DNA of 64,000 nt, taken from UHGV virus genome UHGV-0128973; one strand, 5' to 3'. The notes beneath the pieces are model-generated. The model was not told the origin of the DNA. It saw only the letters and a list, made by a program, of their open reading frames with translations, and made no database searches. Below, piece by piece: positions 4,699-64,000 of the stretch; position 1 is the stretch's first letter, and the number at the start of each line of letters is the position of its first letter. The DNA is from a virus. A program made the translations under genes and the position numbers.

Positions 4699-6959
4699 AA
4701 GAGCTGTGCTATGGATCTGTTTGCAGTGGAATTGAAGCCGCGAGTATTGCCTGGGAACCGTTGGGTATGCGTCCGGCGTGGTTTGCTGAAATCGAGCCTT
4801 TTCCATCTGCCGTTCTTGCGCACCGCTGGCCCCATGTCGCCAACCTTGGCGACATGACAAAACTTGCCAAAAAAGTCCTGGCTGGGGAAATCGAATCCCC
4901 TGATGTGCTCGTCGGGGGTACGCCTTGTCAGGCATTCAGTATCGCGGGCTTACGTGGTGGGCTTGATGATGAACGCGGCGCGCTAACTTTGAAGTATGTG
5001 GAGCTTGCAAATGCAATTGACGACAAACGGTCTGAGTCCTTCCTCAAACCGACAGTTATCGTCTGGGAAAATGTCCCAGGAGTCCTGTCATCGGCAGATA
5101 ACGCCTTCGGATGTTTCCTTGCCGGATTGGCTGGAGAAGATGCGCCATTTGAACCAGGTGATCGACCTGAATCAGGAAAAAGTAACGCGTTCTGGCGGTG
5201 GGATGGCAAAACCGGTTGCCATGCTCCAAAGTGGCCGCAGTGTGGTTGTATTTATGGACCGCAGCGAAAGGTGGCCTGGAGAATCCTTGATGCCCAATAC
5301 TTCGGAGTGGCACAACGACGCCGACGCGTGTTTGTTGTCGCAAGTGCTCGAACAGACCTCGATCCCGCAACGGTACTTTTTGAGTTCGAAGGCGTGCGCC
5401 GGAATATTGCGCCGAGCCGAAAAAAGAAGGAAATCGCTTCCGCCATTATTGCAAATGGCGCTGCAATCAGTGGCGAAAGCCTAAATCCATGCCTACACGC
5501 TGACATGCCACCCGGTATGAAATCGACGAAAGCCGTAAACGCTTTCAGGATGGCGGCATTTGGGGAATATATTGACGATGAAACCGCATCGACAGTAAAG
5601 GCAAGAGATTTTAAAGATGCCACTGACCTTGCCGTTTTTAGCAGCACAGGAGCAGGTTTTTGGTCAGAAGGGCATGGTACATTGCGGGCACGTGAGCAAG
5701 AAAGCCATGAGCATCTTGTTACATTGGCTTTTCCTGAGCGTATGAGCGGTACACAACATGCTGCAACTAAGAATACTTCACCATCTCTAATGGCTAAAAA
5801 TCCAACAGCTGTATGCTATGAAGTAAGAAACGCAGAAGTAGCTGTCCGCCGTCTTACCCCTGTCGAATGTGAAAGGCTGCAAGGTTTTCCTGATGGGCAT
5901 ACGTTGATCCCGACGGAAAAGCGTAAAAAAGTTAATTCAGATGAACTGGCATATCTTCGCAATCACTATCCAGATTTAAGCGAAGAAGAGGCCGCGATGC
6001 TTGCAGCTGACGGACCGCGTTACAAAGCGATCGGCAATAGTATGGCAATACCAGTAATGTGCTGGATTGGCGATCGGATTACTAAGGCCGTATGTCGGCA
6101 GAAAGAAGGAAGTGAAACAAAAGAGCGAAAAGTTAAACCAGCGGCAGAATTCGAACGGTCCATATTCAAATGGGCTGGTGGAAAATTTGGTGTTCTGGAA
6201 CAAATCTTTCGCTATTTGCCAGAAGGGAAGCGCCTGATTGAACCTTTCGTTGGTGGCGGAGCTGTCTTCATGAATGCCGGATACCAGGAAAATCTGCTAA
6301 ATGATGTGAATGCTGACCTGATTAACTTTTACAAGACTCTGCAACGCGAGGCGCATTCACTTATCACTCTGGCACATCGTTTCTTCCAGGACTACAACAC
6401 GCAGGAAGGATACCTGGCAGTACGGAATGCGTTTAACAAACAAGTCTATGATGATTTACATCGCGCAGCGGCGTTTTTGTTCCTGAACCGACATTGTTTT
6501 AACGGATTGACGCGTTACAACCAAGCCGGTGAGTTCAATGTCGGTTATGGGAAGTATAAAACTCCGTATTTCCCATTGCAGGAGATGGAAGCCTTCCTTG
6601 GTGCGGAAGGGCGTTCTGAGTTTGTATGTGGTGATTTTGCTGCGGTGATTGAAGCTGCCGGAGAAGGAGATGTCATCTTTTGCGATCCGCCGTATGAACC
6701 GCTCCCAAATACAGAGGGATTCACGAACTATTCCGGTCATGACTTTAAGTTTGAAGAGCAAAAACGCCTGGTGTCTCTGTTGACGGATGCTCATCGCCGA
6801 GGTGCAAAGGTTCTCATTACTAACAGTGGCGCGCCAAACATCAGAGAACTTTATCAGGACAGTGGCTTCAGAGTGGAACCTCTTTTTGCCAGACGTTCTG
6901 TGTCTTGTAAGGGGGACACTCGAGGTGTTGCTCATGACGTTATAGCAATATTGCTCTAA
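4695..6959 (+). CDS. dmt: Bifunctional DNA methyltransferase Dmt (N-terminal C5-cytosine MTase-like, C-terminal Dam-like N6-adenine MTase)
   Basis: 754 aa; [11 protein letters not shown] and ENV motifs (C5-MTase) then FKWAGGK and DPPY motifs (Dam-type); GTG start with RBS GGAGAGG. Confidence 0.9.
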
Positions 6960-25595: not shown

Positions 25596-25745
25596 ATGGC
25601 TAAGTACATCGTGACTATCGAAGGATTTAATGATTGCAAGGTTGTTGAGTTTGAAGCAGACACGCCAGAGGATGCCGAAGAAATAGGCAGAGACATATTC
25701 TATGAAGAATGCAACTACGGCGTATCACCTGCTACAGAGGACTAA
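25596..25745 (+). CDS. Hypothetical small protein (49 aa)
   Basis: ATG after GGAGAG RBS; below ORF-track cutoff. Confidence 0.3.
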   Translation: MAKYIVTIEGFNDCKVVEFEADTPEDAEEIGRDIFYEECNYGVSPATED

Positions 25746-25748
25746 CAC

Positions 25749-27023
25749 ATGACCACTATTACCAAAGAGCGACTGCTGACAATCAAACAGTGGCGCGAAA
25801 CATACGGACCTGGTAGCAACGTTGTACTGCCAGCAGAAGAAGCGGAAGAACTGGCACGAATTGCTCTGGCATCGCTGGAAGCAAAACCAATAGGTGCATT
25901 CCACATTGCAGAACAGCAAGTTGACGGCACAAGTGACTACCTCAAGGATGGAGAATGGCCTATTGATAATGGAATTATTGAGGTCTACGCCGCTCCACCC
26001 GTTCCAGTAGTACCGGAAGAAAAACCAATGCCTAACGCTCTAAGCATGCTTGAAAGAGAGATCACACAACTGATTGGTGATGCGCAGGAAGCCACTGTTA
26101 CTGGCTATGAGTTAATCGCTGAAGCTTGGCGTTTGATGGATGGACAAGACCCTAAAACCAGCGATTGGCATAGCAAGGCTTCGAAGTATTTAAATTCCAA
26201 TATTGTAGAAAAAGTTGATGATGACCGTATTGAGGCTGTTAAGGCTGTTTTGCGTAGACTGGCTGGCAACTCTCCGGTAATTCCAGGTGAGGTGCTGTCA
26301 GCAATTATGAAGGTTGCCAGGGTTCGTGCCGATTTCGATGATTTTGACGGTGACAGGCGAGGTATCGGTGATTGTCTGGATGAGGCTGAGCAAGAGCTTA
26401 TCGTTACCATTAACAAATATGCCAGTCAGTTGGCAGCAGAACCGATAGCGACTAATAACGTTCGAGAGCAGCAGACAGCCGTTCCGCCAGTTCCGGAAAT
26501 ACAGGATGATGTCGCGCAAGCAATTGAAAATCTCAAGCAGAAGTTAGTGGAATGCAATCGCTATAACTACTGCGCAGATGCAGTTAAAGGCGTAGAGGAT
26601 GCCTGCCACGCTGCCATGCTTCAGGGTAGCCAACCTGTAAGCCAAACTTACAAGTTGCCAGTTAATACACCTTGCCAAGATGCGCCAGCCCATATCTGGC
26701 TGCAAACGGCTGGAGTATGGCCAGAAGATGGCGAGTTAAGCGAATTAACGTGGTGCAGCCACAATCAGCACCATGATGACACGCTATATGTTCGAGCTGA
26801 CCTTGTGAATGGCAACTCTCCGGTAACTCCGGATGGTTGGATAAGCTGTAGTGAGCGAATGCCCGCTCAAGATGATTGGATTTTAATTTATTCAAAGCAC
26901 GGCGAGTATATGGCAGGACAGGTACAAGAGGAATACGTGGAGTTGAGCGACGGCACTTTATCGTGGTTAGGGAACGCCTTGTTCTGGATGCCTCTACCAG
27001 AACCGCCTCAGGAGGCAAAATGA
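25749..27023 (+). CDS. DUF551-type C-terminal domain protein
   Basis: C-terminus DGWISCSERMPAQDDWIL...WLGNALFWMPLPEPP is the DUF551 signature. Confidence 0.5.
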   Translation: MTTITKERLLTIKQWRETYGPGSNVVLPAEEAEELARIALASLEAKPIGAFHIAEQQVDGTSDYLKDGEWPIDNGIIEVYAAPPVPVVPEEKPMPNALSMLEREITQLIGDAQEATVTGYELIAEAWRLMDGQDPKTSDWHSKASKYLNSNIVEKVDDDRIEAVKAVLRRLAGNSPVIPGEVLSAIMKVARVRADFDDFDGDRRGIGDCLDEAEQELIVTINKYASQLAAEPIATNNVREQQTAVPPVPEIQDDVAQAIENLKQKLVECNRYNYCADAVKGVEDACHAAMLQGSQPVSQTYKLPVNTPCQDAPAHIWLQTAGVWPEDGELSELTWCSHNQHHDDTLYVRADLVNGNSPVTPDGWISCSERMPAQDDWILIYSKHGEYMAGQVQEEYVELSDGTLSWLGNALFWMPLPEPPQEAK

Positions 27024-59342: not shown

Positions 59343-61258
59343 GCCGCTACCCCCGCTTTCTGGATTGCTACCAGCAGATCAGCCAGGTGGCGAGCAGCGC
59401 CATTAACCAGCTCTTCGTTTTCCTCAAAACGCCCGGCAGCCTGAAGGGCTGCAATCGCTTCCCGGACATTACCCCGGGCGTTACGGATCTCCGCCATGTC
59501 AGTGCTTTGCATATCCATCACGTTATTGAGATATTCAATGGCTTTATTAGCCTCTGCATCTGCTTCGCTAACCGTTTCATCAGGCTGTGCCGGGGCAGGT
59601 TCTGGCTGAGTAATCTCACCGACTTCGGCCTGCAATGCATTGATCATGCTCTGCACCATTTTCTCGGTGCCAGCGCCCCCCGGAAACGCAATATTGGGGA
59701 AAGTTTTTTGAAACTGAGTTTTCAGCATTACGCGGAACTCGTCTGGTGAGCTGGTGGCCAGATCCAGAGCTTTTTGTGCATATTTGCCAAACGGACCATT
59801 AGTAAGTGTCTTCGCCAGGAAGTCGAAAGAATCCTCGCGAGGCAATAACTTCAGGTCGTACTCACTCATTTGCTGATCAGAAAGCGGGGTATCGTAAGTA
59901 GCAATGCCGTAGCGTGCATATTCATAATACGGGTCACCTTCATCAGGGCGCGGCAGAATTGCTTTGTTACCTTCAGGTATTGCGCCAGGGGCCGCCGGAC
60001 GCATTTGCAAGGCATATCGATATGCACCTACAGAGACTTCTGGTTCAGGCGAAGAGCTACCGGTATCCTCCGCTGGTTCAGGTTCGACGTTTTCCGGTTT
60101 ATGTTCTTCTGGTTGGACCAGATATTCCGATACATTACCCGCTTTGTAGGCTTTAAACAGCTTGCCGATCGCATCTGCCATGTCCACACCCTGTATGGAT
60201 TTAGCCTTGATCATGTACACGCTGCCATCCGAATCGGTTAACTGGATATACCCTTCGCCGTCCTCAATGAATTGCTTCATTGATGCTCCATTACTGAGCG
60301 TCACTTCCCCGTCCATATGCATACGATTTTTGATACTGGCAAGGCGATCCGTCAGCGCGCGAGAGTGCCCACCAGTCATCCCCGCTGGAGCAATGGTATC
60401 GCGCCCACCAGTGCGATTGAGCTGATCAATCTCCGTCTGCAAACGCTCATTCTCTTCATAAAGAGAATCCGCTTCCGATGCAACAGCGTTAATTTTCTGC
60501 TCCAGATCTGCCTTCTGCCCTTCTACCGCTGCCACCTGATCCGCGAGGTCGCTCATGGCATCCTCTTTCTGGTCACTGTCAGCCTGTAGTTGGGTTATTT
60601 CATCAACAAGGGCTTTTTTCTTCTTCTGCGCACGCTGGAATTTTGCCGAGTTTTTCTCTGCAAGGTTGGCAAGTTTCATGGTGACCTGCGCCAGCGTCAT
60701 ATCACGTCCACTCATCGGAGCAACGGTGTGAGTAACGTCTTTTTTATTCAGTAAGAACTGGAAAGCAACCAGCGTATCGCTATTGGTGATCCGGTTTTCC
60801 GCTGTCGGGCTATGAAACAGAATGCTGATAGTCTGACCATCACTGAGCGGAATAATGGCTGGCAAGACCGGCAGCCCGTTAACGTTACGTGCCCGGCCAA
60901 TTTCAGCGCCGCCGATCGCGCGCGCGCCGCTCTGGGCCACATCCCCCGTTTTATCACTCCCCGCAGAGATTCCGGTACCATTCAGCTTCTGGTTCAATGC
61001 CCGGACAAATGCCTGCATGGTCCGGTGTAACTGCAAACGAGTAGAACTAATCGCCTCCAGTAAATCCGTAGCACACCAGTGGATCGGCGTGTCATAGAAG
61101 AACGTAGCCTCGATTTCCTCCAGGGTGTTGGATTCCGTCATCAGATAGCGGTCCTCACCGGCCATTAATGCGCGATATTCATCATCAGTCACTGGCGGGG
61201 GAAGCACGTCAAGCCCAGGCTTGATCGTCACCCCTTTATTGATATTGAACTGTTCCAT
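59339..61258 (-). CDS. darA: DarA antirestriction protein
   Basis: 639-aa ORF at P1 darA position and size. Confidence 0.7.
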   Translation of the reverse strand: MEQFNINKGVTIKPGLDVLPPPVTDDEYRALMAGEDRYLMTESNTLEEIEATFFYDTPIHWCATDLLEAISSTRLQLHRTMQAFVRALNQKLNGTGISAGSDKTGDVAQSGARAIGGAEIGRARNVNGLPVLPAIIPLSDGQTISILFHSPTAENRITNSDTLVAFQFLLNKKDVTHTVAPMSGRDMTLAQVTMKLANLAEKNSAKFQRAQKKKKALVDEITQLQADSDQKEDAMSDLADQVAAVEGQKADLEQKINAVASEADSLYEENERLQTEIDQLNRTGGRDTIAPAGMTGGHSRALTDRLASIKNRMHMDGEVTLSNGASMKQFIEDGEGYIQLTDSDGSVYMIKAKSIQGVDMADAIGKLFKAYKAGNVSEYLVQPEEHKPENVEPEPAEDTGSSSPEPEVSVGAYRYALQMRPAAPGAIPEGNKAILPRPDEGDPYYEYARYGIATYDTPLSDQQMSEYDLKLLPREDSFDFLAKTLTNGPFGKYAQKALDLATSSPDEFRVMLKTQFQKTFPNIAFPGGAGTEKMVQSMINALQAEVGEITQPEPAPAQPDETVSEADAEANKAIEYLNNVMDMQSTDMAEIRNARGNVREAIAALQAAGRFEENEELVNGAARHLADLLVAIQKAGVAA

Positions 61259-61259
61259 G

Positions 61260-61871
61260 TTAATTTCCTGCTTTCAGTTGCTTAAGACGGCGTTTGAGTT
61301 CGCCATTTCGGGCCTTTTCGTTATTGAGTCGGCCTGTCTCCTTATCCAGCTTCGCCCGCAAATCAGTGATCTGCTGTTGATTGAAAGACACCGAGTTCTG
61401 CGCTGATTTATAAGCGGCAACCACCTGAGCATTCCGCTGTTTTGCCTCTTGCAGGCGCTGAAAGTTGGATTTTACTGCCGGTTTCTTGTCTACCGGATTG
61501 GCAACACGTTTCGCTTTGGCGATCAGTGATTTCTGGAATTTTGCGGAGTTTTTGCGGGCCGCTTGCCCCATGACGGTACCAAGCGTCTTGATATCCGGCG
61601 ATTGAGCGTTAGGAATAGCTTTTCCATTCAGCCTCACAGACGATATATCGCCAGTATCGTTTACCTGTATGGCAAGAATTTGTCCGTCGTTAAGAACCAG
61701 CTTTGCGGTTTTAACTTTAACGCCATCTTTCGTTGTTGCGCGGTTGCTGGAGTCAACCTCAATTACCGTAACACCGGTTTTATTGATCGCCGCGATAAGG
61801 GATTTCAGCCCCTTTTCATTAACCTGGTCAAAATCGACCGTTGCATACTTATTTTTCGTCATCTGACACAT
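61260..61871 (-). CDS. hdf: Hdf-like protein
   Basis: 203-aa ORF immediately upstream of darA. Confidence 0.55.
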   Translation of the reverse strand: MCQMTKNKYATVDFDQVNEKGLKSLIAAINKTGVTVIEVDSSNRATTKDGVKVKTAKLVLNDGQILAIQVNDTGDISSVRLNGKAIPNAQSPDIKTLGTVMGQAARKNSAKFQKSLIAKAKRVANPVDKKPAVKSNFQRLQEAKQRNAQVVAAYKSAQNSVSFNQQQITDLRAKLDKETGRLNNEKARNGELKRRLKQLKAGN

Positions 61872-62292
61872 CCTGTGCGAGATTTATTACGTAACTTCTG
61901 CGGATTTGCTGAGTAACAGGGAAAATCCGATACAACGGGTTAATGAACGAGTCGCCATGCGTAACCATGACGTTGAAATGCCACAGTCGCTCTCCTTTAC
62001 CCATATATTCAGTGGGTATGTACAACCATTCACTGTTTTCGCCCTGTTCAGCCGACGTCAGACAACGTTGTTCACCTTCAATCACTGTCGTCGGCTTCTG
62101 AACATCGCGGATCCAATATCTGACCGTTGCGCCGCGCAAAAACGGGAATTTAGACCGGTACTTGAACGGCACCCGGATGAAACCCGGTTTAATTTCCACA
62201 TCACCAAGTTCTAAATGCGTGATGTCCTTGCGTTTTAGCAAATAGCGATCGGCTAAGGCTAACGCAAGAACGCATACACCCCAGCCAATCAT
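61849..62292 (-). CDS. lydB: LydB-like antiholin
   Basis: 147-aa ORF downstream of holin gene, overlapping stop/start. Confidence 0.6.
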   Translation of the reverse strand: MIGWGVCVLALALADRYLLKRKDITHLELGDVEIKPGFIRVPFKYRSKFPFLRGATVRYWIRDVQKPTTVIEGEQRCLTSAEQGENSEWLYIPTEYMGKGERLWHFNVMVTHGDSFINPLYRIFPVTQQIRRSYVINLAQDVSDDEK

Positions 62293-62618
62293 TTCCCGCC
62301 TCCCTTTTTCACCAAACTTGTAAGAACATTCAGAATGCTATCGATATTCACTCGTTTCATCCCTGAAATCACCTCATGACCGTTATTGCTGGCTATCGTT
62401 ACCATTAAGTACGTAATTGATAACTCCCAGCCCTCGTGTTGCCCCAATAGGTACGCCACCGCGCCAGCTGTCACTGCAACAAAGATCTCCGTAACCAATC
62501 CCAACAAATTGCCAGACTGGCGACCGTCTCGGACATCCATCAGGAACGTGCCTATCCCACCAATTACTGAAAGCAGGAGCGCAATAGCAACTGGAGCTAA
62601 TTCCTGTGTGTCAAGCAC
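62289..62618 (-). CDS. lydA: LydA-like holin
   Basis: 109 aa with three hydrophobic segments. Confidence 0.65.
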   Translation of the reverse strand: MLDTQELAPVAIALLLSVIGGIGTFLMDVRDGRQSGNLLGLVTEIFVAVTAGAVAYLLGQHEGWELSITYLMVTIASNNGHEVISGMKRVNIDSILNVLTSLVKKGGGK

Positions 62619-62685
62619 AAGTTCCCTCCTACGTTGTCAGGAGGTAATGGTATGCAAAGTAACTTCTCAACCGGTCATTTGTTGC

Positions 62686-62967
62686 TTAAGAGGCATTTCT
62701 ATTGAGGTACGAATCGATAATCCTTTGTAACTTTTCAAGAATGAGCCTGTTATTGATGCTGCAAATAATAGTCACGCAATTCTGAAGACTTTCATCCATA
62801 CCCTTATATTCCGCGAAATACATGCCTATAAAGCCTGCAAGTACGGCAGCAATACACTCGGCCATCAATTGCCTGCATGACGCTTCGTAACGTTTTTCAC
62901 GAACCCCATTCAGAAACGAATGCACCCCGCCAAGGATGGAGAGGAGCATTATTGTGAAATCACACAT
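62686..62967 (-). CDS. Small two-TM membrane protein (holin-like)
   Basis: 93 aa; hydrophobic helices LLSILGGVHSFL and IAAVLAGFIGMYF. Confidence 0.4.
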   Translation of the reverse strand: MCDFTIMLLSILGGVHSFLNGVREKRYEASCRQLMAECIAAVLAGFIGMYFAEYKGMDESLQNCVTIICSINNRLILEKLQRIIDSYLNRNAS

Positions 62968-63094
62968 AACTATTTCCTTAATAGTGAATTAAATATCATT
63001 GGGAAACGGTATGTACTTTGTGATTTCCACACATACTGGTTTTTGTTAATTAAAATCCGCAGCTTGCTATAAATAACGATAGTGAGCAGAAAAT

Positions 63095-63362
63095 ATGCTA
63101 ATAGGCTATGTACGCGTATCAACAAATGAACAAAACACTGCTTAGCAACGAAATGCCCTTGAAAGCGCAGGATGTGAGCTAATTTTTGAGGATAAGGCGA
63201 GCGGCAAAAAGCTGAACGACCAGAGTTAAAAAATGCTTTTGAGAGGTGACACTCTGGTCGAATGAAAGTTAGATTGGCTTGGATGCAGTATGCGCTCGCT
63301 CTTGAAGCATGAACAGTAATCATCTTATCTGGATGCACTGGAACCAGTCGTTACTTCCAGCG
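63095..63362 (+). pseudogene. cin: Degenerate serine invertase gene (cin/hin/gin family) with four in-frame stops, truncated after ~90 codons
   Basis: MLIGYVRVSTNEQNTA*QRNALESAGCELIFEDKASGKK...GDTLVE*KLDWLGCSM reads as invertase N-terminus interrupted by TAG/TAA/TGA/TAA. Confidence 0.75.
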
Positions 63363-63384
63363 CTCCAGATATTTTTTTAATGGG

Positions 63385-63795
63385 CTACGCCTCCGGGAAC
63401 GCTGGCCAATTGACATCTGGTGCAGTGCTGGTATCCGTTGCGGTCACCGCATCGATATAATCCAACACAGCGTTAAGACGGGTGGTTTCAGCCTGCGTAA
63501 GATTCCGTCCGGCCTGTAATTTCAGTTGAATAAGACTAATGGAAGCCATTGCGGTATCAATCAGCGACTGTTTTTTCTGTTCAGCGTCAGCTACCAGTTC
63601 ATCATGAGAACGTTCCGGAGTGGGTGGTGCAGTAAATCCCCCGTCTGAATACACCCAGCCGATTCCGGGCTGCTCACTGATATCAGAAATATTAATGAGC
63701 TGCTGATTATCCGGCACTGTGAATTCAGCCTCGCCATCCCAGACAATGACATTCACAACCATTCCATTTTCAATAACTGCATATGACGTATTCAT
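63385..63795 (-). CDS. Tail fibre assembly (chaperone) protein, U-like
   Basis: MNTSYAVIENGMVVNVIVWDG... typical Tfa N-terminus; start overlaps upstream stop. Confidence 0.7.
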   Translation of the reverse strand: MNTSYAVIENGMVVNVIVWDGEAEFTVPDNQQLINISDISEQPGIGWVYSDGGFTAPPTPERSHDELVADAEQKKQSLIDTAMASISLIQLKLQAGRNLTQAETTRLNAVLDYIDAVTATDTSTAPDVNWPAFPEA

Positions 63796-64000
63796 TATGC
63801 AAACTCCTCGATAATACAAATCCCTGAAGCGCCTTTCCCGCCCGTCATACTGGTTCCGCTATAACCGGCATCGTATGCGCCACCTCCGCCTGAACCATAT
63901 GCTTTACCGATAACACCACCGCCAGCGCCTGCACGTCCACCGCCGCCCCAGTACGATGTTCCGCCTTCACCGCTGACGCCGATATTTCCGGACTGACCGT
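63795..64000 (-). CDS. Tail fibre protein, C-terminal variable part (partial, continues past window end)
   Basis: Minus-strand frame ends ...GGGRAGAGGGVIGKAYGSGGGGAYDAGYSGTSMTGGKGASGICIIEEFA*; Gly-rich distal fibre region. Confidence 0.6.
   Translation of the reverse strand, partial: GQSGNIGVSGEGGTSYWGGGGRAGAGGGVIGKAYGSGGGGAYDAGYSGTSMTGGKGASGICIIEEFA

Follow-up and report, generated by a model that had tools for sequence, protein, structure and literature searches.

Phage P1 can exchange the tips of its tail fibres, as the serine invertase Cin inverts a ∼4.2-kb segment (the C-segment) between the crossover sites cixL and cixR. Inversion joins the constant part of the fibre gene S (Sc) to either of two distal parts that are each paired with a separate assembly gene (Sv-U or Sv′-U′). 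Inversion of the Cin type requires the recombinase and two inverted cix sites; an enhancer in the 5′ end of cin merely stimulates the reaction. The annotated order in P1 is cin(+), cixL, Sv′(+), U′(+), U(−), Sv(−), cixR, Sc(−) and R(−). A complete segment of this type is also present in the P1-like IncY plasmid pSBF45b (NZ_CP067234.1), in the order 561-nt cin, exact cixL, Sv′, a 178-aa U′, tfa/Sv, exact cixR and Sc, and its intact Cin has both the Resolvase and the HTH_7 domain. In a survey of P1-like phage-plasmids, lydC-cin-Sv′-U′-U-S was listed as highly variable (PMC9603915). Venturini et al. 2019 (PMC6906374) described a partial invertase in plasmid pSvP1 and presumed that host-range switching had been lost. 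More generally, the P1-like plasmids of these authors were without a complete C-segment, with the switch presumably lost and the host range possibly restricted (PMC6906374).

The stretch of DNA analysed here (UHGV virus genome UHGV-0128973; 64,000 nt, hereafter the window) ends in a reduced form of this region. Its final kilobases are 95–98% identical to phage P1 over lydA, lydC, the cin promoter region and the start of cin, and the genes upstream of the scar are the P1 dar/ddr, lydB and holin genes. Because of this identity from lydA to cin and the P1-type genes upstream, the window belongs to a P1-like phage-plasmid. The closest public record was the E. coli plasmid p91 (NZ_CP023381.1, IncY, 91 kb), with 99.9% identity over 62600–64000, and the best match among complete E. 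coli genomes was 99.4% identical over 61000–64000; a 33-mer specific to the window was absent from all 31 loci compared. The features of the region are collected in the table. Among plasmids that carry the same scar, the start of lydC and the adjacent lydC–cin intergenic region (62920–63010) occur as two sharply distinct alleles, with π of ∼0.09 there versus 0 in the neighbouring 62600–62685, which indicates recombination breakpoints adjoining the cin promoters.

Table. Features of the scarred fibre region at the end of the window (positions in the 64,000-nt stretch).
Feature	Position	Strand	Basis
lydC holin gene, left-hand neighbour of the scar	62686–62967	−	93-aa ORF; 98% identity to P1 lydC region
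Predicted P2cin and P1cin sigma-70 promoters	62973–63056	+	Annotation of the P1 record, mapped via a gap-free, 100%-identical blastn stretch
cin pseudogene, equivalent to P1 cin nt 1–212	63095–63294	+	blastn; tblastn; PGAP pseudogene label in p91
Decayed relic of a tfa′ 3′ end, KP12/500465-1 type	63295–63380	+	Alignment to the KP12 and 500465-1 tfa′ 3′ ends
Intact tail-fibre-assembly gene tfa, 136 aa	63385–63795	−	ORF; Caudo_TAP; phrog_188
3′ end of tail-fibre gene S (variable part, glycine-rich tip), leaving the window	63795–64000	−	99.9% identity to p91

The cin gene of the window is a pseudogene, cut after ∼71 codons, and its C-terminal half with the DNA-binding domain is gone. The frame opens with the ATG at 63095 and reads MLIGYVRVSTNEQNTA before it meets a TAG at codon 17 (63143–63145). 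Later in-frame stops follow at codon 45 (TAA, 63227–63229), codon 57 (63263–63265, TGG to TGA) and codon 75 (63317–63319). With P1 Cin as the query, tblastn matched residues 1–74 to window 63095–63304 (75.7% identity, E = 3e-27), and blastn against P1 gave 95% identity over 707 nt, ending at cin nt 212, which is position 63294 of the window. Compared with P1 cin, the stump has a 1-nt deletion, an 11-nt deletion and many substitutions in its distal part. The first 48 nt of cin and the cin promoter region are identical to P1, and the recombinational enhancer sequence is present inside the stump (63113–63184; 68 of 72 nt identical to P1). When translated through its stops, the remnant covered positions 2–84 of the 145 in the Pfam Resolvase profile, with an open frame of only 16 codons, and gave no Pfam match to HTH_7, a domain that scored E = 2.3e-18 in the Cin of pSBF45b. 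It has neither a complete catalytic domain in one ORF nor a C-terminal helix-turn-helix, by which serine invertases are recognised. The catalytic serine of the YVRVS motif is kept (MLIGYVRVSTNEQ), without consequence because of the codon-17 stop and the truncation. At the same locus in p91, PGAP annotates a ‘recombinase family protein’ pseudogene (‘frameshifted; internal stop; missing C-terminus’). The initial annotation of this DNA had called the cin invertase inactivated, and the truncation, the stops, the frameshifts and the PGAP label all bear this out. Its description of the frame, with a stop at codon 17, three further stops and a retained catalytic serine, was also accurate; the similarity that it had extended to ∼90 codons in fact ends at codon ∼67–71, and codons ∼68–96 of the remnant frame are a relic of tfa′, not cin.

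Since the window ends inside S, the presence of cixR and the continuity of S with Sc were read from relatives that are 95–99.9% identical. The S gene of p91 holds a 26/26 match to P1 cixR, and homology to P1 S reaches ∼75 bp past this site into the segment. An exact cixR was present in every fibre gene examined, and an exact cixL only in P1 and pSBF45b. With a degenerate consensus and up to 3 mismatches, no cix-like site was found in the window, nor in the whole of p91 beyond cixR. A search for quasi-cix sites (up to 7 substitutions relative to either P1 site) likewise found none in the window or, beyond cixR, in the p91 fibre region. An invertible segment of the P1 type is bounded by two inverted crossover sites, cixL and cixR, of which the relatives hold cixR only, and contains two opposed fibre/assembly sets, of which there is one intact set (tfa, Sv) and an ∼86-nt relic of tfa′. 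The initial annotation had proposed to look past 64 kb for the constant part of the fibre gene and the cix sites, and in p91 S is continuous, with cixR and without cixL.

A second source of recombinase was also sought. No further Cin homologue was detected by tblastn (E ≤ 10) in the 64-kb window or in bases 1–50000 of p91, and over the remaining bases (50001–91199) the gene table of p91 names a tyrosine recombinase as the sole enzyme of this kind, with no further serine invertase. An intact invertase nearby, which would speak against the loss of switching proposed initially, was not encountered: tblastn found the stump alone, and the remainder of p91 has by its gene table just the tyrosine recombinase.

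The gene next to the scar, tfa, encodes a member of the tail fibre assembly family (Caudo_TAP; lambda Tfa, P1 U), as judged by profile match and by position after a fibre gene. The Pfam Caudo_TAP match had E = 2.8e-22 and 79.7 bits, against a cut-off of 22.1, and covered profile positions 25–131 of 131; phrog_188 matched with E = 8e-31. The tfa ATG overlaps the S stop codon, which places tfa directly after the fibre gene, and the identical Tfa protein was found in 1050 blocks of the assembly collection. We considered whether tfa is a second pseudogene, as PGAP describes it as ‘incomplete; missing N-terminus’, and rejected this, because the ATG of tfa is coupled to the S stop, the match runs to the last profile position and the protein is widespread. 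The PGAP ‘missing N-terminus’ label recurs for tfa in p91, pSBF45b and CP020522 and is probably an artefact of annotating a short member of the family.

Only the last ∼68 codons of S lie within the window, which ends 206 nt into the gene. In p91, S is a single 3072-nt ORF (1023 aa) directly after R, with the domains Phage_fiber_2 and Gly_rich_2. In p91 and all 10 other contigs examined, S was one ORF of 984–1515 codons that directly follows R and precedes Tfa. All ten Tfa contigs shown had the order R, one S ORF, Tfa, a ∼435-nt gap and lydC, and the tfa–S segment did not differ in orientation, as judged against R and lydC, among the 10 retrieved contigs. According to the initial annotation, Tfa and the distal fibre segment both lie on the minus strand and form the expressed set rather than a silent one. 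The ORF, the Caudo_TAP match and the overlap with the S stop agree with the first point, and the single S ORF after R in p91 and the ten contigs supports the second. The variable part of S in p91 (25667–26166 of the retrieved locus) contains 4.2 tandem copies of a 120-nt (40-aa) unit with 97% identity. As S ranges from 984 to 1515 aa among similar plasmids with an identical Tfa, this suggests that fibres differ in length through the number of repeats.

Between the cin stump and tfa, window 63326–63380 (+) aligned to the last codons of the plus-strand tfa′ of the P2-like phages KP12 and 500465-1. The relic reads ...YLDALEPVVTSSAPDIF where KP12 reads ...YLDALELVDTSGAPDIEWP, and the two differ by a 4-nt insertion close to the end; over its ∼86 nt the relic bears stops and indels. 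In subtype B of the scar (CP020522, CP127308), 18 nt more of tfa′ are kept, with a TGG changed to TAG. From these alignments, the assembly gene of the alternative set survives as a remnant, and the relic would mark the right side of the deletion. A related trace is present in pSBF45b, despite its intact switch: between U′ and tfa it has ∼56 nt left from the 3′ end of a KP12-type tfa′ (4913–4968 in the reverse complement of the retrieved locus), a trace of a module exchange that the C-segment underwent earlier. The tfa′ relic was therefore rejected as direct proof of the right-hand breakpoint, as a shorter one sits downstream of an intact U′. Given the pSBF45b relic, only the extra ∼30–50 nt in the window lineage argue for a breakpoint within tfa′, and part of the relic may predate the deletion.

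The same arrangement, over at least 80% of the query, was present in 34 PLSDB plasmids and in 64 of 5426 complete E. coli genomes. For a base-by-base comparison of the junction, the window was aligned with 11 public plasmids and, separately, with pSvP1 (12 in total). The junction (GCATGCG joined to CTC[G/A]CTCTTGA), the 11-nt deletion and the TGG to TGA stop were common to the window and all 12 plasmids. Because all aligned plasmids have these three marks in common, the alignments point to a single origin of the scar. The codon-17 TAG (from TTG) and the 1-nt deletion were present in only some of the plasmids and therefore represent later decay. Two subtypes of the scar differ by 12–13% in the distal stump and the relic, and by at most 1% in lydC, tfa and the end of S. 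This pattern fits an old scar that is decaying without constraint while its flanks are swapped by recombination.

Two further records extend the contexts in which the scar was seen. NZ_CP029365.1 (4297–5205 of the retrieved locus) has a different upstream backbone, holin genes and replicon type, together with the same distal scar, relic, tfa and S end (97.9% identical). The first ∼50 nt of its cin are another allele, joined to the same distal scar, and this mosaic indicates that recombination, with a crossover within the stump, carries the cassette from one backbone to another. On the chromosome of E. coli IH5 (NZ_CP168949.1:2847973-2850974), a full-length match from lydB to S (61000–64000) was 97.7% identical, and represents either an integrated P1-like element or an assembly in which the element was joined to the chromosome.

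We conclude that the scar very probably reflects loss of the P1 C-segment switch, in which cin, one cix site and the spare fibre set have gone and one fibre type is left. The window aligns with pSBF45b on either side of a ∼2.5-kb gap, which corresponds to the remainder of cin, cixL, Sv′ and U′. The initial annotation had stated that the alternate fibre set was lost, and in agreement the cixL–Sv′–U′ part of P1 and pSBF45b is missing and the cin stump nearly abuts tfa(−). In the proposed deletion, ∼2.5 kb would have been removed, comprising cin from nt 213 on, cixL, the entire Sv′ and all of tfa′ except its last ∼90–105 nt. This would have left the 5′ stump of cin fused to the 3′ relic of tfa′, beside tfa and Sv on the minus strand and continuous with Sc. 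As the recombinase is dead and cixR is the only cix site left, inversion would not take place, and the tfa-Sv set would be locked in the orientation fused to Sc. Expression of the locked set would start at the late promoter that lies upstream of R, beyond the window, and all virions would bear a single fibre type with a glycine-rich tip (Gly_rich_2). The scar would have arisen once, then decayed and spread by homologous recombination through P1-like and related backbones.

The tfa′ relic suggests that the lineage once had an alternative set; we infer further that the segment does not invert and that the host range is fixed. Among public plasmids, we found none of the P1-like type that combines an intact KP12-type tfa′ with a neighbouring window-type tfa, and we therefore infer both the direct ancestor and the exact right-hand breakpoint. 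The gene order of pSBF45b shows that a window-type fibre set is able to sit within a working P1-type segment.

A different history would lead to the same locus. A foreign ′tfa′-tfa-Sv fragment, taken from an invertible fibre segment in a P2-like phage, could have been swapped in for the whole P1 C-segment in one step, with no deletion, by homologous recombination at the conserved cix/Sc on the right and an illegitimate join into cin on the left. The lineage would then never have had a working switch with the fibre set of the window, and the end state would again be switch-less. Apart from P1-like plasmids, the sequences most similar to the 3′ end of tfa and to the relic of tfa′ indeed belong to P2-like phages that have their own invertase and a convergent tfa′/tfa pair, and no P1-like plasmid was seen with an intact tfa′ of the KP12 type. 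Moreover, the relic of the window lineage is longer than that of pSBF45b, and so is not derivable from a pSBF45b-like state by simple deletion. However, pSBF45b carries the tfa/Sv set in a complete P1-type C-segment with an intact cin and both cix sites, and the P1 S homology of ∼75 bp beyond cixR is as expected for the arm of a resident C-segment. We consider this one-step replacement unlikely, although it deserves to be kept in mind. Deletion and replacement give the same end state, and the tfa′ relic fits both.

The remaining explanations concern the stump itself. It could be functional, if its promoters and Fis-binding enhancer regulate the fibre genes (e.g. through a tfa/S antisense transcript) or if the host invertase Pin (e14) uses cixR with a cryptic site. 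The P1cin and P2cin sequences match P1 at 100% identity, conservation extends to the first 48 nt of cin and to 68 of 72 nt of the enhancer, and the stump faces tfa and S with no plus-strand terminator-like site seen between them in the scan. Yet the distal stump and relic diverge by 12–13% (flanks ≤ 1%) and gather stops and indels, as unconstrained DNA would, and the CP029365 mosaic shows how recombination with intact relatives explains the conserved 5′ part. A second cix-like site was not found in the window or p91. We regard a functional stump as very improbable. The promoter/terminator scan of 62600–64000 gave results at chance level, and an Rfam search at E ≤ 1 returned no match, leaving an RNA element without support. 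A more specific proposal, that the stump promoters drive a tfa/S antisense transcript which damps or times fibre expression and that the switch-less cassette spreads among P1-like and related backbones because it is favoured rather than just tolerated, is a long shot. Finally, the stops and frameshifts could be sequencing or assembly errors in an intact cin, and the 1-nt loss does fall in an A-run, a typical error site. Here, however, the 3′ 60% of cin, cixL and Sv′/U′ are absent rather than just frameshifted, the junction, the 11-nt deletion and the TGA recur in 12 independently sequenced plasmids, and the arrangement is present in 64 complete genomes. The chance of such an artefact is close to nil.

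In conclusion, the scar is a common and already described pseudogene state in E. coli plasmids, to which we add the tfa′ relic, a junction of single origin with later mutations layered upon it, and a cassette that recombines between backbones. A sizeable share of natural E. coli P1-like phage-plasmids would have given up fibre switching and would make one fibre with a glycine-rich tip. This bears on predicting the host and transduction range of elements that often carry resistance genes. The scar is also usable as a lineage marker, having one junction with later hits on top; beyond annotation, its significance is otherwise small.

The scar occupies the place of the P1 C-segment, with lydC on one side and the S/R fibre operon on the other; the close relatives of the window have the P1 cixR unchanged, and their Sc is ∼96% identical to that of P1. 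In contrast to P1, cin is truncated and has stops, cixL, Sv′ and U′ are missing, and the alleles of Sv and tfa differ from those of P1 (glycine-rich tip in Sv, 136 aa in Tfa). The P2-like phages KP12 (Klebsiella) and 500465-1 (Escherichia) also have a convergent tfa′/tfa pair in an invertible fibre segment, comparable to the convergence of U′ and U in P1, and the 3′ ends of their tfa′ and tfa are 83–84% identical to window 63325–63570. They belong to another phage family, however, and have an intact invertase, encoded on the strand opposite to the fibre genes. Plasmid pSBF45b has the same backbone as the window and a tfa/Sv set that is 91% identical, but retains a full-length cin (Resolvase and HTH_7), an exact cixL, a Mu/P1-type Sv′ and the 178-aa U′. 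The previously described pSvP1 (NZ_MN510446.1) has the same cin–tfa′ junction, 11-nt deletion and tfa as the window, and differs in having neither the codon-17 TAG nor the 1-nt deletion and in its IS-mediated rearrangements elsewhere.
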